IMG/VR virus record: IMGVR_UViG_3300010883_025067 | Location: 1 to 64,000 of that record | Direction: 5' to 3' (one strand) | DNA length: 64,000 nt | Source of the DNA: a virus | Shown: piece by piece, positions 19,613 through 60,133 of the stretch | Layout of the letters: each line of letters starts with the position of its first letter | Position numbering within the stretch: position 1 is the first letter of the stretch | Translations under genes and position numbers: made by a program | The notes under the pieces: model-generated | Database searches by the model: none | The model's input: only the letters and a program-made list of their open reading frames with translations | Told to the model about the DNA's origin: nothing

Positions 19613-20224
19613 ATGGAAATCAATAAGAAAATGATCAGAAGACTTATTCTGGAACAGATGGAAGATATGCTATCAGCAGAGGATGAGACTGATAGAACAA
19701 GATTGGGAGTTGATTCTGTGGATGACCAGATAGATTCTTTTTTGATAAAGTTTGAGAAAGACTCAGTTTCTCCTGAGGGTGCACTTTCAGAGATGAGTGC
19801 AAGATCATTAGTAGACCTCTTGCTTGAACAAGAAGAGGAGGCTGAGGATACACCTTCTGAAGAAGAACCAGCTGAGGCAGAAGAGGCAGAAGTTCCAGAG
19901 CCTGAGGATAGCACAAAGATCGATGTGACAGAGCCTGTTGAAGAGATTCAAAAGCTTCCATTAAATATCGATGCCTTTACAAAGAGAGTTGCAAGACTTG
20001 TAATGAATAATGTTATTTTACTCGATGTGAAATCAGTTATTTTGAATCGTGCGAAAAATTATCTACTTGAGAATTATGACCAAGGCCACGTTGACCAGAT
20101 GAGAGAGATCCTTGATACACAGTTTGATTTCAATCTTGAGGGAAGGGAAGACACTCCTACTGCCCCATACGCTGTAGGTGCATATGCAGGAGGAACCGGA
20201 GGCTCGGGAGGCGGCGGCGGATAA
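19613..20224 (+). CDS. Acidic hypothetical protein (possible head/core protein)
   Basis: MIRRLILEQ and LLLEQ motifs; Gly tail. Confidence 0.6.
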   Translation: MEINKKMIRRLILEQMEDMLSAEDETDRTRLGVDSVDDQIDSFLIKFEKDSVSPEGALSEMSARSLVDLLLEQEEEAEDTPSEEEPAEAEEAEVPEPEDSTKIDVTEPVEEIQKLPLNIDAFTKRVARLVMNNVILLDVKSVILNRAKNYLLENYDQGHVDQMREILDTQFDFNLEGREDTPTAPYAVGAYAGGTGGSGGGGG

Positions 20225-22208: not shown

Positions 22209-23975
22209 ATGCGTGTCATAGTAAAGAAAGATGCTTTGGAAGAAGCACTTTTAAAGATCATAAGTGAGGATCGAAGTCATCAATCAGCTAGAATTGATAC
22301 GATTGTAGGTGCAGATGATGATGAACCTATCGAGCCAACACCGCAAATGGCTGTGCAGCTATCAGTTGATAAGCCTCCTGTAGATGATCCAGCATATATG
22401 CCCTCAAATGTCGAGGAGCTAGGTCGTGCAGCCTCTGTTATATCTGCTGAGGTGCCTTCAGATCAAATTGAATTTTTTTATAGAAAGCTCCACAGACTTT
22501 TAGACAGTGCCCTAGACAGACATGATGCCAAAACTTACGAACAGTCTCTGTCTGAATCGAAAATTCGAGAAAGTGTTCGAATGATTCTGGAAGCCGATGA
22601 CGATGATCTCGATGATATTAAGCTTGCTATAGAGGATCCTGTCTCTGAGACAGCTGATAAGATAATTGATTACATTGTAGCCAACCCATCATTTTTTCAA
22701 GACATCATTGGTCTAGATCCTGAAACTGGTAAGCCGATGACCAGAGCTGCAGATCCACGGCTTGTGCAACTTCGTGTTTTGAGTCAGATGCAAAAAAATT
22801 CAGTCATTCAGAATATTCTACGAAAGAGTGAGATGTCAGAAGATGAGAAGAAAAATGTTAGAGTAGCTGTTGCTAATGAAATGCTTAGATTTGCAAAACG
22901 AGAGGTTACACCAGAAGAAGTTTCTGGATATATTGAAGCAGGAAAGGCAGAGACAGCAGCCCGTATTCCAGCTAAAGAGATGGTTAAGGTAAGAAAGGAA
23001 ACTGGGTTTGAAGGCCTCGAGCTTATTGCAGCGCTCAGAGATCGTGCTGATGAGATAGAAGCAATGGGAATGGAGGATAATGCAAGCGGGCTTAGAAAAC
23101 TTGCAGACGAAACTGAGCAAGAAATTACACATCCTGAGGAATCTGTTGATCCAATTGCAGCAATAGAGAAAATCAATCCGCATGAGGCAGCAAAGATTCG
23201 CAAGCAGCTAAGAGATGAAATTCTGGAAAAAGAAGGGATAGAGCTTAGGATGTCACAACAAGCATTACAAGCACTAAAGGAAAAAATTGCGGATGAGACA
23301 GGATTAAAAGTCAACAATATTCAGAATATTCTCTATGATGACCTTAAAGTATTCGGATTCAACCCAGAGGATGCTATTAAGCTAGGCTTTCCAACTGATA
23401 AAAAAATTCCAAGCACATACGATCCAATGAAGTTAATTGCGCAGAAGAAGATCGTCGGCACTGTCTATGATCTATTCAGATCAACAATACGAGACTATAT
23501 TGAGAGTATTGGGTATGATGATGAGGCTGAAGCCAGTGTCTTAGCTTCACTGCTTGATGATGATATCGCAACCTTTCCTGGAGATGGAATCGACGGATAT
23601 GTGAAGGTTCAGAACACAGCTATTACTCATAGAGATATGGATCCTGATTCACAGCAATACCTTAGTGTTAGAAATTCATTTGAAGCTGTTGTGGCATTTA
23701 TTCAGGGCGTCGCAAAGGCCATCCTCGATCCTGAAAAAACAAAGGGTGCTAAAGAGGGAGGAGTCAGAGCGTTTATGCAACAGATGAACACAGATGGTGC
23801 ATTTCGTCGCCAGTCATCAGATGAAGTGTTAACAACAAGGAATTTTGAACAGTACATGAATGGTTTGATCGATAACATTCAGAATGTCATTTTGGATGAG
23901 AATATAGCATATAATATTCTTGAAAAGGCACTGAAGACTGCTCCTAAAAGAACTAAAAAGTTTTTAAGGAAATAA
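22209..23975 (+). CDS. Large hypothetical protein (possible internal head protein)
   Basis: GAGGAG RBS; ATATTTA upstream; IISE and MILE motifs. Confidence 0.7.
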   Translation: MRVIVKKDALEEALLKIISEDRSHQSARIDTIVGADDDEPIEPTPQMAVQLSVDKPPVDDPAYMPSNVEELGRAASVISAEVPSDQIEFFYRKLHRLLDSALDRHDAKTYEQSLSESKIRESVRMILEADDDDLDDIKLAIEDPVSETADKIIDYIVANPSFFQDIIGLDPETGKPMTRAADPRLVQLRVLSQMQKNSVIQNILRKSEMSEDEKKNVRVAVANEMLRFAKREVTPEEVSGYIEAGKAETAARIPAKEMVKVRKETGFEGLELIAALRDRADEIEAMGMEDNASGLRKLADETEQEITHPEESVDPIAAIEKINPHEAAKIRKQLRDEILEKEGIELRMSQQALQALKEKIADETGLKVNNIQNILYDDLKVFGFNPEDAIKLGFPTDKKIPSTYDPMKLIAQKKIVGTVYDLFRSTIRDYIESIGYDDEAEASVLASLLDDDIATFPGDGIDGYVKVQNTAITHRDMDPDSQQYLSVRNSFEAVVAFIQGVAKAILDPEKTKGAKEGGVRAFMQQMNTDGAFRRQSSDEVLTTRNFEQYMNGLIDNIQNVILDENIAYNILEKALKTAPKRTKKFLRK

Positions 23976-23976
23976 T

Positions 23977-24381
23977 ATGAAAGCTTTGATAGACCTTGTG
24001 GATAAGAGATTGCTAGAGGGTAATTCCTTATCTAACAGTGTGGGTCAAGCACTGGGATCGTTGAAGACCACACTACCTGATCCGTTACCGATAGAGGTAA
24101 AAAATCCGGAATGGATTCTCTTACAAGATCCTGAGAGAATCGCCAAAACTTTTGAATTTGATAGCTTTGGTAACATGAGATATTTCATTGATGAGTTATT
24201 GCTTGAACAAGAGAGAATGAATCATCACTCTTTGATTATGATAGACCATATGACAGTCAGTGTAGAGACATATACACATTCACTAAATGCAGTGACAGAG
24301 CAGGATTTGCTGCTGGCTAAGTTTTGTGATGAAATATTTGAGGATACGAGATATTTTGAAGGAAAAAATAAAGATGTCTAA
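23977..24381 (+). CDS. Pterin-4a-carbinolamine dehydratase-like protein
   Basis: KTFEFDSF, E.MNHH, YTH...VTE.D.LLA. Confidence 0.8.
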   Translation: MKALIDLVDKRLLEGNSLSNSVGQALGSLKTTLPDPLPIEVKNPEWILLQDPERIAKTFEFDSFGNMRYFIDELLLEQERMNHHSLIMIDHMTVSVETYTHSLNAVTEQDLLLAKFCDEIFEDTRYFEGKNKDV

Positions 24382-25932: not shown

Positions 25933-25939
25933 ATACTTA
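25933..25939 (+). promoter_or_regulatory. Putative late promoter ATACTTA upstream of NTase operon
   Basis: Member of recurrent ATANTTA motif. Confidence 0.5.
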
Positions 25940-25955
25940 TCAACAGGGGTAATGT

Positions 25956-27236
25956 ATGAGATCAGAAGAGCTTCTTAGACTGCTTATTCGTGAATCTGTA
26001 TTTAGACTTTATGATGGAACAGAAACAGAGTATGGCTCGTCGAGTCATGTCGAAGACCTTGATAGAATAGTCAACGAGCTTCAGCACTTAAAAAAGACAC
26101 TTAAGCGTGGTTCAAGAAGACTACAAAATAGAAAAGAAATACACAGGATCCAAAGCTCAATAGAGGCAATTCGATATCTAAGAAATGGTGTCAAAAGATT
26201 TGGAATTAGGAGTGGTTTGATCGCTGAGGGAGGATTAAAGATTCCCGGCGGTTCCGATAAAAAGTTAAATCCCACACTAGTGGGTCAGGCAATAAAGGTG
26301 TATGAGAATCTCTTGGGACAGTGGAATTCATATCTTGAGCTAGCAGGTCATGACCCTGTTAAGCCAATCAAGCCCGTAGGGTCTGTAAGCTACTATTCAC
26401 AGGACGCTTTAGAAAATCCCGACGCTGAATATGGAGACATTGATTACCTTGTAGAACTGCCAGTTATGCATCAGGAGAGTTCGGACGAGAAAAGTAAGAG
26501 ACAAATTGAGAATGCAATTAAGCGGGAATATGAGCAGTTGTTTGTCAATTTTTTGAATGCTGTTAAACCTGCTGAAGTTGACATAGAGCTTACATTAAAG
26601 CCAAGTGCTATTGGCAGTAAGGTCCCATCTAGTCCCTATATGGTCATTATTACATTGCCAGGTGGTGAGTCAGTTCAGGTAGACACAGTCACGACTTATC
26701 CGAGAAGTGCAGAGTGGATGGGAGGCAGGTATACACCAGAGCGTGGTGTCAAGGGATACCTGATAGGAAACATATATAAGTCTCTTGGTGACCATCTGGT
26801 GATGTCTATCGGTACCCAGGGGGTGGCAATTAAGTCTAGGGAGGGAAAGAGAGTACCTGCTAAGTTTCAAAAAGGTGTCAAGGTTGAAAATATAAGCACA
26901 GATATCGGTAATTTTCTGGTAGATATTGCTGCTTACCTTGTGGGAGATAATCTAGATCCTCATCCGCTTTTGGTTGGAAATCCTGGTGTTGACAAAGACA
27001 GTGTATCCATGAGATCTCTTGTGAAGGGAATAAAGGGATTAGCTCTGACTCTTGAAGCTGGAGGAGATTATGACGCGCTGGGTATGATGAATGCCATCAA
27101 GGCATACTATGAGGAAAATCTTAGAAGCAATGTAGAGCAGAAAAAAACCAGAGGCTTAAATGAGAAAGACTACCAGAAGCTATTAAAGATGAATGATGTT
27201 GCTGTTAAAATGATGTCGGAGGAGTTTGGTCTCTAA
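25956..27236 (+). CDS. Pol-beta superfamily nucleotidyltransferase
   Basis: PVGS...GDIDY...QVD catalytic pattern. Confidence 0.7.
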   Translation: MRSEELLRLLIRESVFRLYDGTETEYGSSSHVEDLDRIVNELQHLKKTLKRGSRRLQNRKEIHRIQSSIEAIRYLRNGVKRFGIRSGLIAEGGLKIPGGSDKKLNPTLVGQAIKVYENLLGQWNSYLELAGHDPVKPIKPVGSVSYYSQDALENPDAEYGDIDYLVELPVMHQESSDEKSKRQIENAIKREYEQLFVNFLNAVKPAEVDIELTLKPSAIGSKVPSSPYMVIITLPGGESVQVDTVTTYPRSAEWMGGRYTPERGVKGYLIGNIYKSLGDHLVMSIGTQGVAIKSREGKRVPAKFQKGVKVENISTDIGNFLVDIAAYLVGDNLDPHPLLVGNPGVDKDSVSMRSLVKGIKGLALTLEAGGDYDALGMMNAIKAYYEENLRSNVEQKKTRGLNEKDYQKLLKMNDVAVKMMSEEFGL

Positions 27237-27883
27237 TGGACTTTTTCACATCAGACTTACATTTTGGACATAGAAATATTATCAAGCATTGTGATCGACC
27301 CTTTTCGAATGTTGATGAGATGAATAGTGCCCTGATTAACAACTGGAATAGCATGGTCAACAACGATGATCGAGTAATAGTTGTGGGTGACATGTTTTTG
27401 TGTGGCAAAGAAATAATGCCTGAGATAATGTCACAACTAAATGGTTATAAGATTCTTGTAAAGGGAAATCATGATCTGAGTCTCAAGAAGATGAAGGAGA
27501 TTGGATTTGATGAGTGTCATAGAAAAATGAGTTATACACTGCCTGGCGGTCAAAGAGCGCTTGTGCAACATCACCCGATACCCGAGAAGCTGCTTAGCGA
27601 TCATGATCTCTTGATTCATGGACACATTCATATATCACCAAAGGTCAGAGGTAAGAGAATCAATGTCAGCTGTGACATTTGGGATTTTTCACCAATTCAG
27701 GTCAACAGACTGTGTGGTCTAGTCTCGACAAAAAAGAGTGAAGTGTCAAGTGAATGGTGTGATATCCGTCTGGATGGCGAAAACCTTCTGATACACTTGT
27801 CAATTAACATGCAAGATTTTCCCGGTGCTGTTGAGGAAATATATAAAGTGATGCAAGGTCATTGGCCGAGGAGAAGAGAATGA
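27236..27883 (+). CDS. Calcineurin-like metallophosphoesterase
   Basis: SDLHFGH, VGD, GNHD, HGHIH. Confidence 0.88.
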   Translation: MDFFTSDLHFGHRNIIKHCDRPFSNVDEMNSALINNWNSMVNNDDRVIVVGDMFLCGKEIMPEIMSQLNGYKILVKGNHDLSLKKMKEIGFDECHRKMSYTLPGGQRALVQHHPIPEKLLSDHDLLIHGHIHISPKVRGKRINVSCDIWDFSPIQVNRLCGLVSTKKSEVSSEWCDIRLDGENLLIHLSINMQDFPGAVEEIYKVMQGHWPRRRE

Positions 27884-30800
27884 AGCTTGGGCTTTACGGG
27901 GGAGGATTCAAACCCTTTACAACTGGGCATTTTGCAAGGTTGGCTGACGCGATACATGATAATGACAAGGTGTACTTATTTTACGGTATGCAGCAAGTAG
28001 AGCCAGCTAGGTATGGGAAGAAAGGCCAGCAGCTAAAATCGAAACAGAAGTTCAGAGATATTGGAAAAACCGGAAGAATGTATGATGAGAAAGTTGCTGA
28101 GTCTATCTTTCAAATATACAAGACTGCTCTTGAGAGAATCCCAGAAGTCGAGGTGATTCTGGTACAAAGTCAGGCTAGGGACGAACAAGGAAATCTCGCT
28201 GCAGTTCGAGCACCTGTAACAGCGATATTCAAGAATCTTGAGGAGTTTGTTAAGAATCCCGACATGTATGAAAAGGTTACTATCTATGGAGATAAATCCT
28301 CGATGGCACCGTACATGAAAAGTCCAAAGTTTAAAGACCTTGTGAGAGTGGGAAAGCTCCAATTCGGTGGTGCTATTCCTGAAAATCCAGAAGATTACCT
28401 GGATCCGGACAGGCTAGATAGACTAATGACTCGCGGCGAAGAAGAAGCCCGTGACGCACTAAAGGGATATTATGCAGACTTAGAGGGAGAAGATAGAAAG
28501 GAACTATCAGATGAGGATATCACACAGCTACAATCTGTCAGAGGTACTCGAGTTAGAGATCTTGCAGCTTCTCCAGAGACAACAGAAGAAGCTAAGCGCT
28601 ACCTTCCTCCTTTTCTTAACAGTGATGAAAAGGACAAGATCATTCAAATTCTTCTGGGTAGCATAGATGAGTCACTTATAAAGCCAGCAATTTCAGAAGC
28701 TGTTGTAAAAAGAGCAGCAACAAAGTTTTCTGCTATAAGGTTGCTATCAGAGCAAGATGATAAAAGTGCTGTTGGGCCTGGTGAGGAAGCACACATATAC
28801 AATCTGTATGAGGAGCTGGGAATGCCCCTCAAGGACATCATTGAGATAGGTCATTTAGGATTGAAAGGAAAGCTAGAGAATGTTCAGGAGAAAATGGACG
28901 GTCAGTTTCTGGCATTCACAGTTGTCGATGGTCAGCTAAGATTTTTCACCAAGATGGATCTTCAGAGTCAGAGGGCAAAGGATAAGCGGCTAGAGTCGAT
29001 TCGAGCAGGCGGACCCGGCGGAGGCATGACTTTAGATCAGATCATGTCTGCTTATACAGGAGATAGATCAAATATCGCAGATGGATTTGCAATCGCTTAT
29101 GAGGCATTGGAGCCTGTAGCACTACCATATCAGGATTCACTCTTCAGAAATGGAGAGGTTGTGATGGCATCACAGATAATGGTATCAAAGAACCCTAACA
29201 CAATTCTATATAACAAGGACTCTCTAAGGACAGTCCTTGCTATCTCTTTAACAGGTGAGCCTGTTAATCAAGATGCACTGTCATCCTTTAAGTCAGAGAT
29301 GCGTGATTCCTCGACGGATGCTTTTACCATGGACGAGGTACCCACAGCCTCTCTTATGAAAGGGCTTGACGAGGATGATAGTGAGCTTGAGCAATTAGAG
29401 AAAGATCTAGAGTCAGTTGTTGCAGAGGTGGGACTTTCAATTAGTAATAATACAGTTGGTGATTACGTCAATGCGAGATTAGAGGAGTTCATCAGGGAGA
29501 AATATGAGTTTATTCCCGATGACTTTGTCCCTGGAGTCGCTGACAGATTTATGACAGGAAAGGGAAGAATTGCCCTACAGCTTAAGAAGGTAGTATCACC
29601 TGAAGAGTACCAGCGCTTCCGATCGCTTGATAGTGTGAAGACCAGAGTGGTACAAGAGGCAATTGTTCCACTTGAGAACATTATTCAGAGGCTGGGCATC
29701 ATGATTATTGATAAGCTCGATCTCGCCCTTCAGGCTAGTAATCAGGAAGATCTGCTAGGATTTGTTAAAGACGTTAGGGGTGAATTTGAATCTGGGTTTA
29801 ATTTTGGTTTGGGATCTGAAGATGAGAAGACGTTAGAGGGGATTCGTGTAGCCTTGGCGAGACTTGAGGCCAATGAAGATTTATTTACTCGCGCCACAGA
29901 AGGTATCGTCTTTACACACAACAATAAGACATATAAGCTAACCGGTCTTTTTACACCCATTAATAGATTGCGTGGATTCTTCTCATACGGCAAGGCAAAA
30001 ATGCCAGACCGAGGAGAAAGTAAAGATCTAAGTGAAACAGTAAGCAAAATTTTAATGAAGATTCTTTCCGAAGGAGGAAAGGCCTTTAAGCATAAGGATG
30101 AGCAGGGAAATGAGATTGTTGCAACATCTGAAGATAGTATATCTAGACAGCAGGCTGACCGGATAATACAAGATCTTGAGAAGAATCTACTGGAGCCATT
30201 GGGCATCAAGTTTTTACCTGTAGGTAGTACAGCAACTGACAAGCAGATGATAGGTGACATCGATCTTGTTGTCAGTGAACCTGATAAGGGGACACTATAC
30301 CAGAAAATGTTGAGTGCTGCATATCTCAGTGATGAACTTGTCGAAGGTGTGCCACGCGTTCTAAAGGTCGGTCAACTTGTTGCTATCATGGTTAAGGATG
30401 CAGAGACAGGGCAATTATTTCAGGTTGATCTGTTTCCAAGTTCTAACATGGACGATACATCCTGGGAACTCTCGGGAGGAGGAGAAGGCAAGGTTAAGGG
30501 TGAGTATCATAAGCTAATGATTTCTCTTCTTGCTAAAATAAAAGGTGAGAGAGAATCAACACCAGACAGGGTTGTTAAGTACACAGTAGCTTTTCCGGGC
30601 GGCTTACGTGAAAAAGTTAATGACATCGAAGATGAGTCAGGAAGGATAGCTGATCCTGATGATTATCTGCCTAAGCTGGGTGTGCAGGTAGAAGATAAGC
30701 ATTCTGTTAAAATCTTTGAGGATCTCGTGTCTCACATGGTGGAGGCGGATACATCTGAATTTAGAGAAGCCTTAGAGAGATTTGAGGAGTATATTGGGAA

Positions 30801-32181
30801 TAGATTAAATGCCAAGTCAGAGAAGATAAAGGGCGAGGCCCAGAAGACTCTTGATGTGATCAATGTTGCATTTTTTAAAACCGCACCAGAAAGTGAATTA
30901 GCTGAGTTGCACTTTAGACAGAATGTTAGAGCGCTGCTATATGAGAATTCTGAAGCATATGAGAGCGCGAAATCATTCACTGAAAAGTCAAGAATCATCT
31001 TTAACATGTTTAAATCACCTGATTTTTTCGGAAGTGACATACAGAAAATAATCAATGTGTCAGGTGCAAATAAGTTAGTCAGACTTGGCTTGGCACCAGG
31101 TGCAGATGATCGTCATGATATCAGTAAGATATTAAATCTTATGTATGATAGCTTATCACCTGATCGTACGAGGGGTATCATCGAGCTTGCACCTGATGAG
31201 CATCCTAATCCCAGTAGCAAGTATCTCGCATATGTCATGCCTGATCTCGATGATCTCATGGTGATTTTTGGAATAGCCGGTGTCACCGGCGGCCAGCGCA
31301 AGGCTGGATATGTGTATGAGATCGATGTGGGTGAGAATCTTAAAGCAGCGGGAATCCAAGCACGAAGCGGAAAGGATAACTCTGTATCTGATGTCTATGT
31401 GCCCATGGTCAGCGGAATGCTTGGTATCGAGGTCAAGTTACCAAATGCTCAAGCTGGAGAGCCCACATTAAAGTATGACTTTGACAAGGGTGAATTCTTT
31501 GCTTCAAACCCTAAGCCGCAAAATCAGGATATTGCAGATCTTATAAATATGGATCCAACAGCACTTGAGGTGAATAGACGTCTGACACTTGTGAGAGATG
31601 TGATAAATGACTATCGGGCTGAGAATGACCTTCCTGAGATAGAGAGCATACTCGCTAAGATAAGCAAAAAGGAGTACAGGGATGTGGTGTTACCCGCTCT
31701 TCGAAGCAAGGGAGAGAATATTTCAGGTGCGTTGCTTGCTGTTTACACTGTTTCAGCAGATATACTTCGGAAATATTACATGCTTAAAAAAGCAGGTGTA
31801 GTCCAGGTGAAGGGAAAGGGATTATTTCACCTGCACCCAGACTTCAAGATAACGTTAACAGATGAGAGCGGCAACAGTAGATCATCAGAGTTTTTTGACT
31901 TCTCACCTGCGCAGGGTGCAGTTTACTTTAGAAATTTCAGAGGTGGGAACTATGGGATTAGATCGCAGCTCAAAAATTCACCACTGCGGAGATTAAAACA
32001 GTCTGGTATTGATCTTGATGCAGAGAGGGATCGCGATGAGTTTGCTAAGCTCGTGTCAACTTTAAATCTTCCAGATCCAATGTCAGTCGCTGCTGAGAGC
32101 TCTTCTGAGCCTACAAATGAGACTGCAATTGTGGCTCGGGCACTAAAGAGCTTAATTTTAAGGTACAATGGAAGAGTCTGA
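27880..32181 (+). CDS. Multidomain protein: HIGH nucleotidyltransferase + ligase-like + Pol-beta NTase + PD-(D/E)xK nuclease
   Basis: GGFKPFTTGH; QEKMDG...EGIVF...YKLTG; VGS..GDID..QVD; SDV..IEVK; ATG overlaps upstream stop. Confidence 0.7.
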   Translation: MKLGLYGGGFKPFTTGHFARLADAIHDNDKVYLFYGMQQVEPARYGKKGQQLKSKQKFRDIGKTGRMYDEKVAESIFQIYKTALERIPEVEVILVQSQARDEQGNLAAVRAPVTAIFKNLEEFVKNPDMYEKVTIYGDKSSMAPYMKSPKFKDLVRVGKLQFGGAIPENPEDYLDPDRLDRLMTRGEEEARDALKGYYADLEGEDRKELSDEDITQLQSVRGTRVRDLAASPETTEEAKRYLPPFLNSDEKDKIIQILLGSIDESLIKPAISEAVVKRAATKFSAIRLLSEQDDKSAVGPGEEAHIYNLYEELGMPLKDIIEIGHLGLKGKLENVQEKMDGQFLAFTVVDGQLRFFTKMDLQSQRAKDKRLESIRAGGPGGGMTLDQIMSAYTGDRSNIADGFAIAYEALEPVALPYQDSLFRNGEVVMASQIMVSKNPNTILYNKDSLRTVLAISLTGEPVNQDALSSFKSEMRDSSTDAFTMDEVPTASLMKGLDEDDSELEQLEKDLESVVAEVGLSISNNTVGDYVNARLEEFIREKYEFIPDDFVPGVADRFMTGKGRIALQLKKVVSPEEYQRFRSLDSVKTRVVQEAIVPLENIIQRLGIMIIDKLDLALQASNQEDLLGFVKDVRGEFESGFNFGLGSEDEKTLEGIRVALARLEANEDLFTRATEGIVFTHNNKTYKLTGLFTPINRLRGFFSYGKAKMPDRGESKDLSETVSKILMKILSEGGKAFKHKDEQGNEIVATSEDSISRQQADRIIQDLEKNLLEPLGIKFLPVGSTATDKQMIGDIDLVVSEPDKGTLYQKMLSAAYLSDELVEGVPRVLKVGQLVAIMVKDAETGQLFQVDLFPSSNMDDTSWELSGGGEGKVKGEYHKLMISLLAKIKGERESTPDRVVKYTVAFPGGLREKVNDIEDESGRIADPDDYLPKLGVQVEDKHSVKIFEDLVSHMVEADTSEFREALERFEEYIGNRLNAKSEKIKGEAQKTLDVINVAFFKTAPESELAELHFRQNVRALLYENSEAYESAKSFTEKSRIIFNMFKSPDFFGSDIQKIINVSGANKLVRLGLAPGADDRHDISKILNLMYDSLSPDRTRGIIELAPDEHPNPSSKYLAYVMPDLDDLMVIFGIAGVTGGQRKAGYVYEIDVGENLKAAGIQARSGKDNSVSDVYVPMVSGMLGIEVKLPNAQAGEPTLKYDFDKGEFFASNPKPQNQDIADLINMDPTALEVNRRLTLVRDVINDYRAENDLPEIESILAKISKKEYRDVVLPALRSKGENISGALLAVYTVSADILRKYYMLKKAGVVQVKGKGLFHLHPDFKITLTDESGNSRSSEFFDFSPAQGAVYFRNFRGGNYGIRSQLKNSPLRRLKQSGIDLDAERDRDEFAKLVSTLNLPDPMSVAAESSSEPTNETAIVARALKSLILRYNGRV

Positions 32182-32449
32182 TCAAGGAATGAATAGAATT
32201 TTAGAGCAGTTACACTTTGTTGCATCCTATGTTGGAGATTCCGATGATTGGGTGACTGTAAAGAAGGAGATTCTTCGAGGAATACCCTCGCCGCTGCGCA
32301 AAAGATTCTCTCGTCGTGATTCGAGAACAAAGGAGCAGTGGTTGAATAATTTTGAGAAGGAGCTAATTATTTACTATAAGGAGCAGACAGGTGTCGACCT
32401 AAAGCTTCGTACACTTGCAGAGAGAAGGGAGATGTTTGGTGTCCTCTGA
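32168..32449 (+). CDS. Hypothetical protein
   Basis: Overlapping operon ORF. Confidence 0.6.
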   Translation: MEESDQGMNRILEQLHFVASYVGDSDDWVTVKKEILRGIPSPLRKRFSRRDSRTKEQWLNNFEKELIIYYKEQTGVDLKLRTLAERREMFGVL

Positions 32450-33209
32450 TCGTGAACAGATAAAGTATATTGTGAGAAACCTCCTTAGTGAGAAAGTCGG
32501 TGATGTGGGTTTCAAGCTAGGCCAGCGTGGTCAGGAAAATAAATTTATGACATTTTTTGAGCTGTACGGACAGGCTCCGGCTAAAAAACAATTACTTTTT
32601 TTCAGAATTCCACAGTCACTAAAAACATTTGTGGGAGCAGCCACGTATTTGACGCTGATTGGAGGAAAGGATGTTGATAGAAAATTGGCTCAACATCTCG
32701 GAGTTGGTAGCGGTGATTTTGCGGCAGATTTTTCAAAAATTCTAGTAGGTATTAAAGAAAAAGGGAATGCAGGATTTAAAGAGGTCTTTCCAACCGTAGC
32801 TAAGCATTTTGCAGAAGTGCCGGGACAGGAGGCTGAGAAACTGAGCATAGGAGATATTTCTGCTTTGAAGGAAAGTGTATCAAGTGACTTAGAGCGTGTC
32901 ACGAGCAAATTGGGTGATATTGCAAATGCTAGTGATTTACAGGAAATTATCACTAAATACGGAAGCTTTGTCGGTGCTGATGTTGATATAAATGAAATCT
33001 CTGACTTTTTGGCAAAGCATAGCGCAGAGATAACAGGTGACTTAGCTGCTCTTGAAGATACACTGAGAAGAAAAGAAATTCCTGAATGGATCGATGACAT
33101 GTTTGGAGAGTGGCGCCAGGGGTTTAATGATCTGATCAAAGACTTTCCAGAGCAAAAAGATAATATGATGGAGATATTTGATCATGCTAGAGAAAAGCTT
33201 TCTCTCTAG
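32439..33209 (+). CDS. Hypothetical protein with LLSE motif
   Basis: GGAG RBS before GTG; IVRNLLSE. Confidence 0.65.
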   Translation: MSSDREQIKYIVRNLLSEKVGDVGFKLGQRGQENKFMTFFELYGQAPAKKQLLFFRIPQSLKTFVGAATYLTLIGGKDVDRKLAQHLGVGSGDFAADFSKILVGIKEKGNAGFKEVFPTVAKHFAEVPGQEAEKLSIGDISALKESVSSDLERVTSKLGDIANASDLQEIITKYGSFVGADVDINEISDFLAKHSAEITGDLAALEDTLRRKEIPEWIDDMFGEWRQGFNDLIKDFPEQKDNMMEIFDHAREKLSL

Positions 33210-36239: not shown

Positions 36240-36620
36240 ATGTCGAAAGAGTCAAAATTTAGAATGATTGTGAGTCACATTCTTGAAGAGCAGGAAGAAA
36301 TGCGGCTCAAAAGAGATCTTGTCAATGTCACATGCCTTTTGACGATGGTAACAGATGCTCATGTACCCGACACACTTACTCGTATTCGAGTGTTGCCGAC
36401 TGTTTCTGTTGTGGGTCAGAAGGAACCAGTACAAAGAACACCAAAGGGTAAGACCATGCTTGAAATTTACGTCAAGTATCTACCAAGATCTGGTAGTAAC
36501 TACAAAAATTTGCTATCTTTAAGCAAGCTCATCAGGAGATTACCTGGTGTGAAGATAGTTAGAATCTTGACATTGGATGGCAGGAAAGTAACATTCAAAG
36601 GAAACCCAATCGTGGTGTGA
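36240..36620 (+). CDS. Hypothetical protein (possible ferredoxin/ACT-like fold)
   Basis: IRRLPGVKIV; N-terminal ILEE motif. Confidence 0.55.
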   Translation: MSKESKFRMIVSHILEEQEEMRLKRDLVNVTCLLTMVTDAHVPDTLTRIRVLPTVSVVGQKEPVQRTPKGKTMLEIYVKYLPRSGSNYKNLLSLSKLIRRLPGVKIVRILTLDGRKVTFKGNPIVV

Positions 36621-44417: not shown

Positions 44418-44739
44418 TTTGGAGAAAAGAATGAGTGAAAGAAGGTGAATACTGGACTCCTCCCGATCGGGAGCATGTAGCCTATTGGCAAATGGATGAC
44501 TTCAGGAGATTAAAATGAGCGGCGGACACTTTGAATACAAAGACTGTGTGGGACAAAAAGATGAATGGTAGCAAGGTAGATTCATATGAGCTTTAGTGAA
44601 GATAAACTACAGATCGATTATCGTCATGCATGTGATACACTAGTGAGATTACGTCAAAGAGTTGGTATGTTGCGAACAATGATTGAATTATGTGAGAGCA
44701 GGATGCAGCAGCTTGAGACCGGAACCGAAGAATGTGATA

Positions 44740-46344
44740 ATGATGAAAATTGAAGACTTCTTTCCATATCCGGAGATCAGAGATGCACAACGTACAGCGA
44801 TCGATTTTTGTATTCAAAGCTTAGTAGATAAGAGATACGTGATCATCGAGGCAGGAACAGGTGTTGGAAAATCTGCTATCGGTCTGACATCCTCTAGAAT
44901 GCTCTGCAAGAATGCTGAGAAGTATGTGGACTTTGGTGAAGGTGCATACTTTTTGACCACACAAAAGATCTTGCAAGATCAATATATTAGTGATTTCGGC
45001 AAGGACCATATGAGATCGATTAAGTCCTCATCAAATTATCAGTGTAGCTATTATAAGAGAAATACATGTCAAGAGTCACAGAGATTGTTGAGAAATGAAG
45101 AAAAAGGTTCTAGATTTTTTAAGGCATGTACATTCAGCTGTAAATATAAAAATGCGAAACAGCAATTTCTCGAATCGCCAGAGTCTGTTACAAACTTTCC
45201 ATATTTTCTAACTGAAGCAACATTTTCAGGAAAAATTACACCGAGAGATGTGCTGATCATTGATGAGGCTCATAATATTGAGGCTGAGCTTAGCAATTTT
45301 ATTGAGATCACAATTTCTGAAAGGTTTGTGAAATACGCACTAAAGATGCGGTGGCCAGATAAGTCAACACAGCTCCAGGCTGTTAAGTGGATTAGAGAAG
45401 CTTACTTTAATAAGATTAAATCACAGCTGTCACACATGGAGACGACACTTAAGAATACAGGGTTAAAGGATAGATTGTCAGACTTTAAGGCACTTGCAAA
45501 ACAGTATGACATGCTCAAGTCACATGTTGGAAAGATTGAGACATTTCTCAATGTCTACAATAAGGAAAATTGGGTCATGGACCTTGTGCCTGCTAGAGGT
45601 AGAGCGATGAGAAAGTTTACATTTAAGCCTATTGATGTATCTCCGTTTGCGCAAGGCTACCTGTTTCGCATGGGAAGAAAGGTGATCATGATGTCAGCCA
45701 CAATTCTTGATCATGAAACTTTCTGTCGCTCGTTAGGAATTGACAGAAGTGATGTAGCATTTATTTCTATTCCATCACCGTTTCCTGTTCAGAATAGGCC
45801 CATCTTTATCTGTCCAGTTGGCAGCATGAATGCAAGTAATATAGACCAGACACTGCCAAAAATGGCTGATGCTGTTAAGGAAATTCTTAAGGAGCACAAG
45901 GGTCAGAAGGGAATTATTCACTGTCATACTTACAAAATTGCAAATTACCTTGCAAACAATATACGATCAAAGCGCTTGCTAATCCACGATGGAAACAGTA
46001 GAGATGAGATTCTTCGCAAGCACATCGCTTCAAAAGATGACACAGTTTTGCTCTCACCTTCAATGTCTGAGGGTGTTGATCTCAGAAATGACTTATCAAG
46101 ATTTCAAATAGTAATGAAGATTCCTTATCCCTATCTTGGTGATCCACTAATAAAAAAGAGGATGAATAAGTGGGATGGATGGTATTCGATGCAGACTGCA
46201 AAGAGAATTGTGCAATCAGTGGGTAGAAGTGTTCGATCGATGGACGACCAAGCTGTGACATATATCCTTGATGCTGATTGGAGTAAGTTCTTTTATAGGA
46301 ATAGAAAGATGTTTTCTGATGACTTCAAGAGCTGTCTGGCTTGA
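44740..46344 (+). CDS. DinG/Rad3-family helicase
   Basis: AGTGVGKS, Fe-S Cys residues, DEAH, SAT, EGVD, Q.VGRSVR. Confidence 0.9.
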   Translation: MMKIEDFFPYPEIRDAQRTAIDFCIQSLVDKRYVIIEAGTGVGKSAIGLTSSRMLCKNAEKYVDFGEGAYFLTTQKILQDQYISDFGKDHMRSIKSSSNYQCSYYKRNTCQESQRLLRNEEKGSRFFKACTFSCKYKNAKQQFLESPESVTNFPYFLTEATFSGKITPRDVLIIDEAHNIEAELSNFIEITISERFVKYALKMRWPDKSTQLQAVKWIREAYFNKIKSQLSHMETTLKNTGLKDRLSDFKALAKQYDMLKSHVGKIETFLNVYNKENWVMDLVPARGRAMRKFTFKPIDVSPFAQGYLFRMGRKVIMMSATILDHETFCRSLGIDRSDVAFISIPSPFPVQNRPIFICPVGSMNASNIDQTLPKMADAVKEILKEHKGQKGIIHCHTYKIANYLANNIRSKRLLIHDGNSRDEILRKHIASKDDTVLLSPSMSEGVDLRNDLSRFQIVMKIPYPYLGDPLIKKRMNKWDGWYSMQTAKRIVQSVGRSVRSMDDQAVTYILDADWSKFFYRNRKMFSDDFKSCLA

Positions 46345-48032: not shown

Positions 48033-48983
48033 GTGCATCTAGCAAATAAGAATTGGTGGAATAGAGTTAATAAAGAATTTAGATCTTTCTTTTCTGGCTG
48101 TAGGATACTTGAAGTCGGAAGCTACAGTGAAAATGGAAGTATAAGAGACTTTATTGATGATGATTATGCTGAGTATATTGGAGTCGATTGGAGACCAGGC
48201 CCATGTGTTGATGTGATTTCGCTGGCACATAAGATGCTTTCTGAATCTGAGAAAGATGAAAAGTTTGATGCTGTCATATCATCGTCAATGCTTGAGCACG
48301 ATCCACACTGGAGAGAAAGCATTTTAAGAATGTGTGAGCTTCTAGCAGATAATGGAGTTCTAATTCTCACCTGGGGAAATATTCATAATTTACTCCATGA
48401 GCTTGATACAGCACCGGATGGAAAGTTTCATCCATTATCAACACAAAATGTCAGAGGCTTACTTCAAGAGCTTAATATGCACATTCACATTTCTGCTTAC
48501 CCTAGTGAGCTGGGATTCACTGAGGGAGTATTGCTTGGATATGCTCCAGGCTTACTAGAGATATATGAATTCTCTGAGTTCGAAATAACGTTAATGGAAT
48601 ACTATTTCCGACAGGATAATCGATATATAACACTGGTAGAATACTTCACAAATAAAGAAATACAGATGACTGAGATTTGTATAGCATGGAAGCAATTCCA
48701 CAATGAGCTGATAGATTCAATGAAGAGAGATATAGATTTTCATCTAGTCCCGGAGTCCTGGCACCGGGCGTCTATGCTCTACCACTCTGTAAGTCCTCGA
48801 AACAGTCATACACACATAATTGAGATATTGACAGATTATGTTGATAATCATTGTGAATTCCCACAGGCTGAATCGATCATAGTTGCTTTTAAAAATAAAA
48901 GCCATGTACCTGCAGATAGCAGGCAATTGATTGGAAAGACTAATGAAACTATTCGTGCAGTTCGTAACACACTTTATGAATAA
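48033..48983 (+). CDS. SAM-dependent methyltransferase
   Basis: ILEVGS, GVD, FDAVIS..MLEHD. Confidence 0.7.
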   Translation: MHLANKNWWNRVNKEFRSFFSGCRILEVGSYSENGSIRDFIDDDYAEYIGVDWRPGPCVDVISLAHKMLSESEKDEKFDAVISSSMLEHDPHWRESILRMCELLADNGVLILTWGNIHNLLHELDTAPDGKFHPLSTQNVRGLLQELNMHIHISAYPSELGFTEGVLLGYAPGLLEIYEFSEFEITLMEYYFRQDNRYITLVEYFTNKEIQMTEICIAWKQFHNELIDSMKRDIDFHLVPESWHRASMLYHSVSPRNSHTHIIEILTDYVDNHCEFPQAESIIVAFKNKSHVPADSRQLIGKTNETIRAVRNTLYE

Positions 48984-50649: not shown

Positions 50650-50936
50650 AGCCTTGGTTTCTGTATGTAGTTGAATGTTCGGACAACACACTTTACACTG
50701 GAATCACGACAGATATCAATCGTCGATTGCATGAGCACAACAATACACGAAGAGGTGCAAGATATACAAGATCTAGGCGACCTGTTAGTCTTGTATATTG
50801 GAGAGATCTTAACGATCGATCAGAGGCTACGAGTGCCGAGCTAGCCTTTAAACGTCTTAGCAGAGCACAAAAGCTTAAAATGATTGCTAAGAGTGACCAT
50901 GAAGAGTACGATAAAAAGAGTTATCATCGAAACTGA
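50646..50936 (+). CDS. GIY-YIG nuclease (YhbQ-like)
   Basis: LYVV, LYTGIT, RRL.EHN, GARYT. Confidence 0.9.
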   Translation: MKPWFLYVVECSDNTLYTGITTDINRRLHEHNNTRRGARYTRSRRPVSLVYWRDLNDRSEATSAELAFKRLSRAQKLKMIAKSDHEEYDKKSYHRN

Positions 50937-51306
50937 TGTAGATTCCAATGGTGTCGTGTATGCTGAAAAGTTCTTTCATTGGCTTTATGCTGAGGTGATG
51001 AAATATAGCTCTAACCTACTTAATAAACCCTGTTTGATCAGACATGTTTATGAGGTAGATATAAAAAGTCCTGTAAAAGCAGGTAATATCTTGGAGATAT
51101 CATTGAATCCGAAGGGTTTTGGCAGCACATCGATTAGTATTGATGTCAGGGTTAAGGATAGAGAATCAGATGTATCTTATCTTTCAATCAAGCAACTCGT
51201 ACTAGTAGCAGTTGACGAAGATCAGATGTCAATTGAACATGGTATAGCTAGTGAGAAGGATTGCTTCTTGCCATACGGCTGGTCAACCTATAAGTCCGAT
51301 GCTTAA
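50899..51306 (+). CDS. Hotdog-fold (acyl-CoA thioesterase-like) protein
   Basis: D.NG.V, SPVKAG.IL, G.TSI, VAVD. Confidence 0.6.
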   Translation: MKSTIKRVIIETDVDSNGVVYAEKFFHWLYAEVMKYSSNLLNKPCLIRHVYEVDIKSPVKAGNILEISLNPKGFGSTSISIDVRVKDRESDVSYLSIKQLVLVAVDEDQMSIEHGIASEKDCFLPYGWSTYKSDA

Positions 51307-57006: not shown

Positions 57007-57079
57007 GGGGATGTAGCTCAATTGGGAGAGCATCTGCTTTGCACGCAGAAGGTTGCTGGTTCAAGTCCAGCTGTCTCCA
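57007..57079 (+). tRNA. tRNA-Ala(TGC)
   Basis: G3:U70 pair; followed by CAA, no encoded CCA. Confidence 0.92.
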
Positions 57080-57086
57080 CAAGAAT

Positions 57087-59479: not shown

Positions 59480-60133
59480 ATGAAAATGAGAGAAAAATTG
59501 TTGTCACAGGTGAGACGCTTACTAAGTGAGATTGCAACACAGGCATTTCCCAGTGCGCTACCTGTTGACATCAAGGACATAACAAAAGTCATCCAGCAGC
59601 TCCGACAGGAGCAGATGTCCAAGGAATCGGAGATTAGTGCAGCACAGAAAGAACCTGATCCTAATGTCCGCTCAACCAGGGTGGCACAACTACAAGGAGA
59701 GCTAGGTGATATCATAGCTCAAAAGAGCCAGCTTGTTCAGATGCAGAAAAAATCCACTACGTCAGAGGCAATCAGTCAGATAAGTTCTAATCTTAAGATT
59801 TCAAGAGTAGACCTTATGGAGCTTGTTAGAGAGCAACTTGATGATGATCAAGCTAAGCCCGTCGCCCGTCAGCAACACAGGAATAGATCTAGAGAAAGAA
59901 TGAAAATTACCAAGGCCCATCTCAGACAGATAATTAATGAGGAGATCAATCGTGTCCTTGATGATGATATTGATGAAGATACACAGGGCCTCAGGGCAAA
60001 GCTTGGCGGAGATGATCCTCTGTCTGTGGCTGGAGGAGATACTGAAGATGATCCGCTTGTCGATGAAGAAGCACTTACACTACCCACTGGAGACCGCGGA
60101 GGTTGGGAATACATGACCGGCGGTGAACACTAG
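59480..60133 (+). CDS. Hypothetical protein with three copies of the recurrent helical motif
   Basis: VRRLLSE; LKISRVDLMELVREQL; MKITKAHLRQIINEEI. Confidence 0.7.
   Translation: MKMREKLLSQVRRLLSEIATQAFPSALPVDIKDITKVIQQLRQEQMSKESEISAAQKEPDPNVRSTRVAQLQGELGDIIAQKSQLVQMQKKSTTSEAISQISSNLKISRVDLMELVREQLDDDQAKPVARQQHRNRSRERMKITKAHLRQIINEEINRVLDDDIDEDTQGLRAKLGGDDPLSVAGGDTEDDPLVDEEALTLPTGDRGGWEYMTGGEH

Follow-up and report, generated by a model that had tools for sequence, protein, structure and literature searches.

A conserved gene block of an uncultured large phage that links predicted PolX-like nucleotidyltransferases, a phosphoesterase and an RNA-ligase-type polyprotein

Results

Organization of the gene block

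The DNA analyzed here, referred to hereafter as the window, is a 64,000-nucleotide stretch (positions 1 to 64,000) of the IMG/VR virus record IMGVR_UViG_3300010883_025067, a 75.9-kb fragment, about 24% complete, of an uncultured large phage. Four genes that we call A, B, C and Dp lie together in the window and encode a predicted PolX-like nucleotidyltransferase (NTase), a calcineurin-type phosphoesterase, a polyprotein of four domains (D1 to D4) and a small conserved partner (Table 1). The genes are coupled as the initial annotation had described: A and B overlap at TAATG and B and C at ATGA, both of which are found in the sequence. The start of C is the ATG at 27880 in all homologues, versus the TTG (27862) of the open reading frame (ORF) listing. 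C and Dp overlap by 14 nt when Dp starts at 32168; another possible ATG lies at 32189.

Table 1. Features of the gene block and related elements, in window coordinates. A slash within a sequence marks the candidate cleavage position.
Feature	Positions	Strand	Description
ATACTTA	25933-25939	+	16 nt upstream of the ATG of A; candidate promoter element
Gene A	25956-27236	+	426 aa; leader, helical hairpin, PolX-like nucleotidyltransferase (about residues 95-352), C-terminal helical extension
A leader LLRLLIRES	25971-25997	+	hRxxhRE type; residues 6-14
LIAE/GGLK of A	26217-26240	+	invariant E91-G92-G93-x-K95; candidate prohead-protease site and mature N-terminus
A catalytic motifs	26373-26690	+	G142-S143, D161-x-D163, D243; invariant in 43 aligned homologues
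Gene B	27236-27883	+	215 aa; calcineurin-type metallophosphoesterase, predicted 3'-end healing enzyme, without leader
Gene C	27880-32181	+	1433 aa; domains D1-D2-D3-D4
C domain D1	27880-28689	+	residues 1-270; HIGH-motif nucleotidyltransferase, NadM/NadR-NMNAT-like
D1/D2 junction helix ISEAVVKRAATKFSAIRLLSE	28690-28752	+	serves as N-terminal leader where relatives have split D2-D4 proteins
C domain D2	28753-30027	+	ATP-grasp-type covalent nucleotidyltransferase (ligase), Rnl2/Rnl5-like
D2/D3 junction LSETVSKILMKILSE/GGKAFK	30028-30090	+	leader-like helix and invariant E731
C domain D3	30091-30912	+	second PolX-like nucleotidyltransferase; G782-S783, D793-x-D795, D850
D3/D4 junction FRQNVRALLYE	30913-30945	+	internal hRxxhRxhLxE leader motif; followed by a variable acidic linker in relatives
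C domain D4	30967-32181	+	residues 1030-1433; probable PD-(D/E)xK nuclease fold; E1147, D1171, E1184-x-K1186
Gene Dp	32168-32449	+	93 aa; small conserved partner
tRNA-Ala(TGC)	57007-57080		ends ..CTCCAC, then aag

Nucleotidyltransferases A and D3

The initial annotation took A and the third domain of C for paralogues. The motifs EGG, PVGS, GDID, QVD and VKG occur in identical order in both proteins. Because BLASTP found no significant alignment between A and C, the relationship is visible only by profile-profile comparison, in which hhalign aligned the two families over 138 columns (A 88-268 with C 728-875) with 93% probability and E 3e-7. On these profiles we regard A and D3 as remote paralogues. 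Conservation of the catalytic aspartates, on which that annotation had staked its proposal, is complete: the glycine and the three aspartates are invariant in the alignments of both families. The motif serine is invariant in the A family; in the D3 family it is the adjoining T784 that is invariant.

AlphaFold models were used for fold comparison. The model of A has a predicted local distance difference test score (pLDDT) of 88, and the D3 part of the C model, which comprises 1169 residues, has a pLDDT of about 90. Foldseek placed Pol lambda and Pol beta at the top for A (E 3e-3) and Pol lambda for D3 (E 2.7e-5). VIA-wide, a fold search independent of Foldseek, returned family X polymerases as all of the top 8 chains for A (Z 9.2-10.0) and all of the top 10 for D3 (Z 8.2-10.7); these chains comprise Pol beta, lambda and mu, TdT, the PolX of African swine fever virus (ASFV) and bacterial PolX. 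Taken together, the family X matches of A and D3 extend over 161-204 aligned residues and cover palm plus thumb. ASFV PolX aligned with A at 170/176 residues (root-mean-square deviation 3.4, Z 9.9). Terminal uridylyltransferases (TUTases), MenT, CD-NTases and a CCA-adding enzyme matched over the core only (90-125 residues, Z 5.9-8.0). The CD-NTases CdnE (Z 7.4, 125 residues), CdnG (7.3) and CdnC (7.0) fell below every PolX match with smaller cover, and the CCA enzyme 3h37 aligned over a core of 92 residues (Z 5.9).

Sequence searches gave marginal matches of the D3 family profile to Pol lambda (E 1.4e-3) and ASFV PolX (0.07) in the PDB. Neither the A family profile nor phmmer with A found a match in the PDB; A matched nothing in Pfam (E <= 0.1) or PHROG, and C, including D3, matched no family X polymerase of Pfam at E <= 0.1. 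A tblastn search with A of 50,697 GenBank phage records was likewise negative, and the 113 homologues of A are metagenomic. PF10127 (RlaP) matched neither A nor C nor anything in the 76-kb record, comparison of the A family with T4 NrdC.11 by hhalign gave a probability of 0.2%, and no window protein matched the PF01743 (CCA-adding) or CD-NTase profiles. An 8-kDa dRP-lyase or HhH domain was not recognized in A or D3. ASFV PolX likewise lacks the 8-kDa and HhH domains. As modelled, A and D3 fold most like family X DNA polymerases, and less like the CCA-adding and CD-NTase clades offered by the initial annotation; neither resembles RlaP.

The best viral structural match of A was BFVD A0A6J5TD12 from an uncultured Caudovirales phage (1096 aa; E 5.5e-18, 22% identity, 360 columns), where the matching region is one domain of a large protein bearing the name ParB/Sulfiredoxin. 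A-type polymerases therefore appear to be used in other multidomain phage proteins too.

Domains D1, D2 and D4 of C and the partner Dp

Only the third-domain NTase of the polyprotein had been recognized in the initial annotation, which left the ligase, the NMNAT-like and the nuclease-like domains unnamed. D2, which extends over residues 271-726 of C, carries the ligase motifs I (EK338MDGQ), IV (E674-G) and V (K683/K686). K338, D340 and G341 are near-invariant and E674, G675 and K686 are invariant. Fold comparison of D2 (VIA) matched at least nine RNA ligases with Z 6.0-7.8; NgrRnl (7.8), T4 Rnl2 (7.2), Trl1 (7.0), REL1 (7.0) and T4 Rnl1 (6.7) aligned over 166-210 residues. ASFV DNA ligase also matches the fold (Z 7.0). 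In the model D2 contains a large helical insert; beyond motif V there are just some 40 residues and a disordered linker, with no OB domain. PF09414 was matched weakly in 5 of 35 close relatives of C (best E 3e-4) and was reached by one distant member of the D2 family, at 28.4 bits versus a cut-off of 27. A D2-only profile and phmmer of C found no match in the PDB, and PHROGs assigned no family to seven variant C homologues. On its motifs and modelled fold, D2 is an RNA-ligase-type adenylyltransferase, Rnl2/Rnl5-like and lacking an OB domain.

The conserved motifs of D1 are GGFKPFTTGHF, with the family form GGFKPF(T/H)xGHF, and VRGTxVR, which includes R226. A D1 profile matched 2qjo (E 1.5e-3) and 6gye (E 2.8e-3) in the PDB over the HIGH region only, and D1 matched phrog_3462 at E 2e-3. 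Many relatives encode D1 as a separate gene. By these motifs D1 is a HIGH-superfamily nucleotidyltransferase similar to the nicotinamide mononucleotide adenylyltransferases (NMNAT) of the NadM/NadR type; conversion of nicotinamide mononucleotide (NMN) to NAD+ is its putative activity.

The most variable module of C is D4. Its E...D...ExK pattern is present in all three C-terminal variants of the C family, model residues 874-919 follow an alpha-beta-beta-beta order, and a comparison with the ESM Atlas gave the sole external lead, to R.HinP1I (0.85). HMM searches brought no confirmation, and fold searches, run with the 1169-residue C model, were dominated by D3 and D2. From its pattern and model, D4 is probably a PD-(D/E)xK nuclease-fold domain. 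Complex I subunits and GrpB also matched at model residues 765-873 (Z 6-6.8), apparently by chance, and these matches were set aside. Among the variant C-termini (P0034-P0043), residues 973-1034 of P0043 weakly match an ADP-ribosyltransferase exoenzyme (E 0.004, below the cut-off), an unconfirmed lead, and one member of the C family has a weak match to LAGLIDADG_3 (E 0.005). Dp matched no family in Pfam or PHROG; its ESM Atlas matches to a Caulimovirus coat protein and a retrotransposon gag were rejected after failing a consistency test.

Phosphoesterase B

The gene between the two NTases encodes a calcineurin-like phosphoesterase, as first annotated. B matches phrog_547 (E 6e-47) and Aquifex aq_1665 (PDB 1xm7; E 6e-9), and in Pfam it falls just under the cut-offs of Metallophos_2 (24.3 versus 27) and Metallophos (21.1 versus 21.5). 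All six metal-binding motifs (DxH, GD, GNHD, H, GH and GHxH) are invariant; residues D7, H9, D52, N78, H79, H112, H130 and H132 do not vary in 16 orthologues. B can accordingly be taken, on its motifs, as an intact calcineurin-type phosphoesterase. It also matches the ligase-associated PdeM (TIGR04123) weakly (E 2e-5). The family is found in 1241 phage records; in Bacillus phage BigBertha its gene lies between those for DnaB and SbcCD. Residues 170-215 form a C-terminal extension of about 45 residues (..ED(F/M)xG..W) past the phosphoesterase core that is common to the orthologues and might be a docking element for A.

Conservation of the block in related loci

The neighborhoods of relatives, all of them metagenomic fragments, were taken from IMG/VR loci, 25 centered on C and 43 on A. 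Conservation of the linkage, which the initial annotation had named as a check, was found: the order A-B-D1-D2-D3-(D4)-Dp is colinear in 9 of the 25 C-centered loci, down to 28% identity, and B adjoins A in 25 of the 43 A-centered loci (after A in 19, before it in 6). The A-B pair forms a second tight unit, present without C within 8 kb in at least seven loci. Dp follows C in 17 of the 25 C-centered loci, and in another (L022) it is a divergent neighbor of D2; relatives have a variable D4 or another module in its place. A was sought and not found in five records where C has no upstream A, records that are only 16-28% complete and uninformative on this point.

The D2 family is large, with 2040 clusters at 50% identity. 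Among 57 distant members with several domains, 16 carry a HIGH NTase (PF01467) upstream of the ligase domain, which makes the HIGH NTase-ligase pair the constant core; D1 is the most constant partner of the D2 ligase family. Two of the 57 are fused to a Zeta/AAA_33 P-loop kinase and one to PolyA_pol plus PolyA_pol_RNAbd, which is of the CCA-adding type (PF01743; E 2e-30). DNA ligases of PF01068 and PF01653 were not found in five related records (L001, L018, L021, L023 and L011; 37-78% complete), and the D2-type enzyme may be the only ligase of the clade.

Part of the block is present in a cultured cyanophage, Microcystis phage Mel-JY01 (L076; PP395634.1 11243-13162), as a 639-aa D1-D2 fusion annotated as 'cytidylyltransferase like protein'. 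This protein has an N-terminal leader of the LLSE type (..ILLSE) and an IIAE/GG junction, and its gene lies 7 genes upstream of the large terminase.

Leaders and junctions

The sequence LIAE/GG in A had been marked in the initial annotation without the meaning of a T4-type protease or leader site. Residues 84-94 of A have a pLDDT below 50 and form a disordered linker around it. Short homologues of A begin with a leader of 12-20 residues (L-R-x-h-h-R-x-h-h-x-E) that is followed directly by the invariant GGLK. In the window the leader of A is followed by an inserted helical hairpin and then by LIAE/GG, which corresponds to the leader end of the short homologues.

Comparable elements separate the modules of C. 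Homologues of 1145 aa start at the D1/D2 helix (M-A-I-L-I-T-P..RAAARF..h-x-E), and the D2/D3 junction is a low-confidence linker (pLDDT < 50 at model residues 447-468). The 11-residue motif of the D3/D4 junction is conserved in 32 relatives; helices ending in h-x-E are found at the D1/D2 and D2/D3 junctions too. Modules of C are exchanged among relatives exactly at the junctions: D1 may be separate, D4 may be replaced by two other variants, and an insert of about 240 aa occurs. The insert is an extra module at the D2/D3 junction of the C homologues P0020 and P0025, where it lies exactly between two h-x-E sites (..LSE.. and ..IAE/GG).

A position-specific scoring matrix of the leader was built only from the D3/D4 junction, and hits of at least 10 bits were counted. 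The other ORFs of the window gave 7 hits versus 0.44 in shuffled and 0 in reversed sequences, and 5 of the 7 were N-terminal. The hRxxhRxhLxE leader lies within the first 4-26 residues (10-21 bits) of ORFs 19613-20224, 32415-33209, 36240-36620, 50884-51306 and 59480-60133; weaker or internal hits were seen in ORFs 22209-23975, 23977-24381, 44683-46344 and 48033-48983. Such a distribution suggests that the leader is a tag for sorting or cleavage used throughout the genome. Peptidase_S77, the prohead protease family of T4 gp21 type, was found in 4 of 5 related records (E 1e-26 to 3e-31) and not in the window's own 76-kb fragment, which is 24% complete.

Other features of the window

Nearly all genes of the window are on the + strand, the GC content is about 0.40, and there are eight tRNA genes. 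The block lies in a replication gene region, near genes for a DNA polymerase, a helicase, a sigma factor and a GroEL-like protein. Upstream of A is the ATACTTA motif that the initial annotation had placed ahead of the operon. The window shows no excess of this motif (6 copies observed versus 7.8 expected); 4 of the 5 copies on the + strand lie shortly upstream of an ATG, and ATA(C/T)TTA precedes A in at least 7 of 26 related loci. ATACTTA is thus a possible promoter element by its position. Scans for promoters and terminators gave counts at the level of shuffled sequence, and megablast of the region against phages gave no match. The tRNA-Ala gene does lack an encoded CCA, as first noted, and is the only one of the eight to do so.

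Discussion

A proposed break-repair toolbox

The conserved, coupled unit, the intact aspartates of its NTases and the presence of a ligase domain are together best read as a logic of end healing, extension and sealing. We propose, tentatively, that an uncultured marine giant phage of the T4 type uses the block as a toolbox for mending breaks in RNA. The substrate would most likely be tRNA or another structured RNA cut by host nucleases; tRNA repair specifically is possible. RNA is favored because the sealing enzyme is of the RNA ligase type and because a CCA-adding enzyme and P-loop kinases are fusion partners of its distant relatives. The heal and seal parts of the heal/tag/seal system first proposed are supported by the linkage, the ligase domain and the catalytic aspartates; its tagging, marking or signaling part finds no support in NTases with a PolX-like palm plus thumb.

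In the order of steps that we infer, B would remove 3'-phosphate or 2',3'-cyclic-phosphate blocks. A and D3, as minimal PolX-like polymerases, would then add one or a few nucleotides, most likely ribonucleotides, to the 3'-OH, and D2 would seal the 3'-OH/5'-phosphate nick by way of a Lys338-AMP intermediate. D4 would make or trim breaks and leave 5'-phosphate ends, and D1 would probably supply or regenerate an adenylate cofactor, NAD+ or similar, for the pathway. A precedent for the extension step is RlaP, a Pol-beta NTase that adds 1-2 NMP to damaged RNA and is encoded beside RNA ligases (PMC7824862; bioRxiv 10.64898/2025.12.29.696909).

A and the D2-D4 part of C would probably be loaded into the prohead, cut apart and delivered with the DNA. 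The capsid targeting sequence of T4 is a short N-terminal propeptide, and gp21 and its giant-phage relatives cleave after a Glu that follows a short motif (PMC9026906). Given leaders and junctions that end in h-x-E and a gp21-type protease in the clade, capsid loading and cleavage are therefore plausible, and the balance of these sequence features leans somewhat toward the modules of A and C being packaged and cut by the prohead protease.

Several observations weigh against this interpretation. B, Dp and stand-alone D1 lack leaders, and those of fused C are internal, its N-terminus being the HIGH motif itself. No polynucleotide kinase and no 2H or cyclic phosphodiesterase was found in the module or the 76-kb fragment; without a kinase the 5'-OH ends left by classical anticodon nucleases could not be sealed. 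The fold matches of the D2 ligase have middling Z scores, and C of the window itself has no Pfam ligase match. Fusions to CCA-adding enzymes or kinases are rare in the D2 family (3/57) and distant. Both NTases resemble template-directed DNA repair polymerases and not RlaP or CCA-adding enzymes, the metal-dependent nuclease signature of D4 is usual in DNA enzymes, and in BigBertha the B family sits among genes of DNA replication and recombination. Judged by the polymerase and nuclease folds, a duplex or DNA substrate is at least as well indicated. Both bodies of evidence, for RNA and for DNA, would be accommodated if an Rnl5-like ligase sealed a patch made of ribonucleotides.

Alternative interpretations

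A somewhat unlikely alternative is a kit for repairing gaps and nicks in the phage genome, akin to single-strand-break repair, base excision repair (BER) or LigD. Breaks would arise from D4 or from damage, B would clean the 3' ends, the PolX-like enzymes would fill in, possibly with ribonucleotides, and the Rnl5-like ligase would seal the 3'-ribo nick; if packaged, the kit would repair an incoming, damaged or host-nicked genome. ASFV carries out repair with a virion-borne Pol X and ligase. The nearest structures to A and D3 are exclusively family X repair polymerases, matched in palm plus thumb, and a PD-(D/E)xK-like motif is present in D4. Breaks with 5'-phosphates need no kinase, and none is present. 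Rnl2/Rnl5-type ligases seal duplex nicks in which the 3'-OH strand is ribo, and LigD uses ribonucleotide patches. The fold matches of D2 include ASFV ligase (Z 7.0), B weakly matches PdeM and belongs to the family found between DnaB and SbcCD in BigBertha, and the module sits in a replication gene region. A viral precedent is the PolX-ligase fusion PgVPolX, which works in BER (PMC5537341). Against a DNA substrate, the ligase domain has its nearest matches among RNA ligases and is without the OB domain that all DNA ligases possess, distant members of the D2 family have a CCA-adding enzyme or kinases resembling polynucleotide kinase as fusion partners, and a dRP-lyase or HhH domain was not detected. 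The five related records have no conventional ATP- or NAD-dependent DNA ligase, which would fit a DNA kit but is weak evidence from records that are fragments.

It is doubtful that the enzymes of C are independent cargo, strung together like a 'polyvalent protein' only for joint loading and release by the protease, with A-B as a separate two-gene unit. Polyvalent injected proteins are known (PMC5512222), and the swapping of modules at the junctions (separate D1, D4 variants, the 240-aa insert of P0020 and P0025), the A-B pairs that occur apart from C and the weak resemblance of one variant C-terminus to an ADP-ribosyltransferase (E 0.004) would be expected of such a string. However, deeply diverged relatives retain the order D1-D2-D3, 16 of the 57 distant proteins again pair D1 with D2, A is a paralogue of D3 and is usually adjacent to C, and all modules act on nucleotides or nucleic-acid ends, so that a single pathway fits better than a random mix.

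Similarly improbable, in our estimate, is a self-contained machine, carried in the virion of a tailed phage, that is released by the protease, injected, and cuts, patches and seals to mend the incoming phage genome with ribonucleotide patches. Its parts would be the two minimal PolX-type polymerases, the sealing enzyme of RNA ligase type, a nuclease and the NMNAT-like module, which would possibly recycle NMN to NAD+ for the ligase. To our knowledge, virion-borne genome repair is known from ASFV-like eukaryotic viruses and so far not from phages. Last, the NTases might act as writers of nucleotide marks or of signals, by AMPylation or as cyclic oligonucleotides, or might complete the CCA end of the tRNA-Ala, with B as the eraser. 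This view draws on the intact catalytic triads of the Pol-beta superfamily, on CD-NTases among the weaker fold matches (CdnE, CdnG) and on the CCA-less tRNA-Ala, but is very improbable, since CD-NTases, TUTases and the CCA enzyme cover only a 90-125-residue core at lower Z while PolX matches cover 170-204 residues and include the thumb, no window protein matches the PF01743 or CD-NTase profiles, polynucleotide ends are the likelier target of an NTase fused to a ligase and a nuclease-like domain, and the host CCA-adding enzyme would be enough for a single tRNA, whose standing as a substrate in the initial annotation reduces to co-occurrence.

If the enzymes of the block act as we infer, they would provide compact new polymerases and ligases and a case of enzymes delivered along with the genome. 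For part of the block, the D1-D2 fusion of Mel-JY01 offers an experimental handle in a cultured phage.

Comparison with known systems

A close counterpart is the T4 set of Pnkp, Rnl1/Rnl2 and RlaP (NrdC.11; PF10127), in which a Pol-beta NTase and an end-healing phosphoesterase likewise stand beside an ATP-dependent enzyme of the RNA ligase type (PMC7824862; bioRxiv 10.64898/2025.12.29.696909). The logic of healing, adding nucleotides and sealing is shared, and the neighborhood of the RNA ligase is similar in that D2 and D3 form one fusion, with A encoded two genes upstream. Unlike the T4 set, the block has no kinase, its NTases are PolX-like and not RlaP (no PF10127 match; hhalign probability of 0.2% with NrdC.11), and its phosphoesterase is of the calcineurin type whereas that of T4 is a HAD enzyme. 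Its ligase has a large helical insert and is fused to NMNAT-like and nuclease-like domains, and its leaders suggest capsid loading.

A minimal family-X-type polymerase together with a ligase in a large marine or DNA virus is also seen in Phaeocystis globosa virus (PgVPolX, a PolX fused to an NAD+-dependent ligase) and in ASFV (Pol X and ligase, a BER pair). In contrast to these, the ligase of the block is RNA-ligase-like without an OB domain, neither LigA-like nor of the DNA ligase fold; the ligase domain precedes the polymerase domain; two paralogous polymerases are present; similarity to PolX in sequence is marginal (E 1.4e-3) and a dRP-lyase domain is absent; and the host is bacterial.

Other enzymes combine some of the same parts. 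Pnkp of Clostridium thermocellum joins a calcineurin-type phosphoesterase with a ligase-type adenylyltransferase, and LigD joins a phosphoesterase, a polymerase and a ligase. However, the polymerase of LigD is a primase-polymerase and its phosphoesterase differs in fold from B; the block has no kinase domain, and no Hen1 or Ku partner was found.

For the leaders, the comparison is with the internal proteins IPI-III and Alt of T4, which have short N-terminal leaders ending in (L/I)-x-E and are processed in a phage whose gp21 protease is of the Peptidase_S77 type found in the present clade (PMC9026906). The leader of the block differs in being a longer amphipathic hRxxhRxhLxE helix that also occurs internally, between modules, and the cargo would be repair enzymes.

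The kind of system to which the block belongs, phage end healing and sealing, is already known. Descriptions of nucleic-acid repair in phages involve NTases of the RlaP or CCA type, phosphoesterases of the HAD or 2H type, and the ligases Rnl1, Rnl2 or RtcB. The combination of enzymes found here is not described in PMC7824862, PMC9503650 or PMC5512222. The block differs in the use of PolX-like polymerases in place of RlaP or CCA enzymes, a ligase coupled to an NMNAT-like domain, a nuclease-like module, and joints between the modules that fit a prohead protease.

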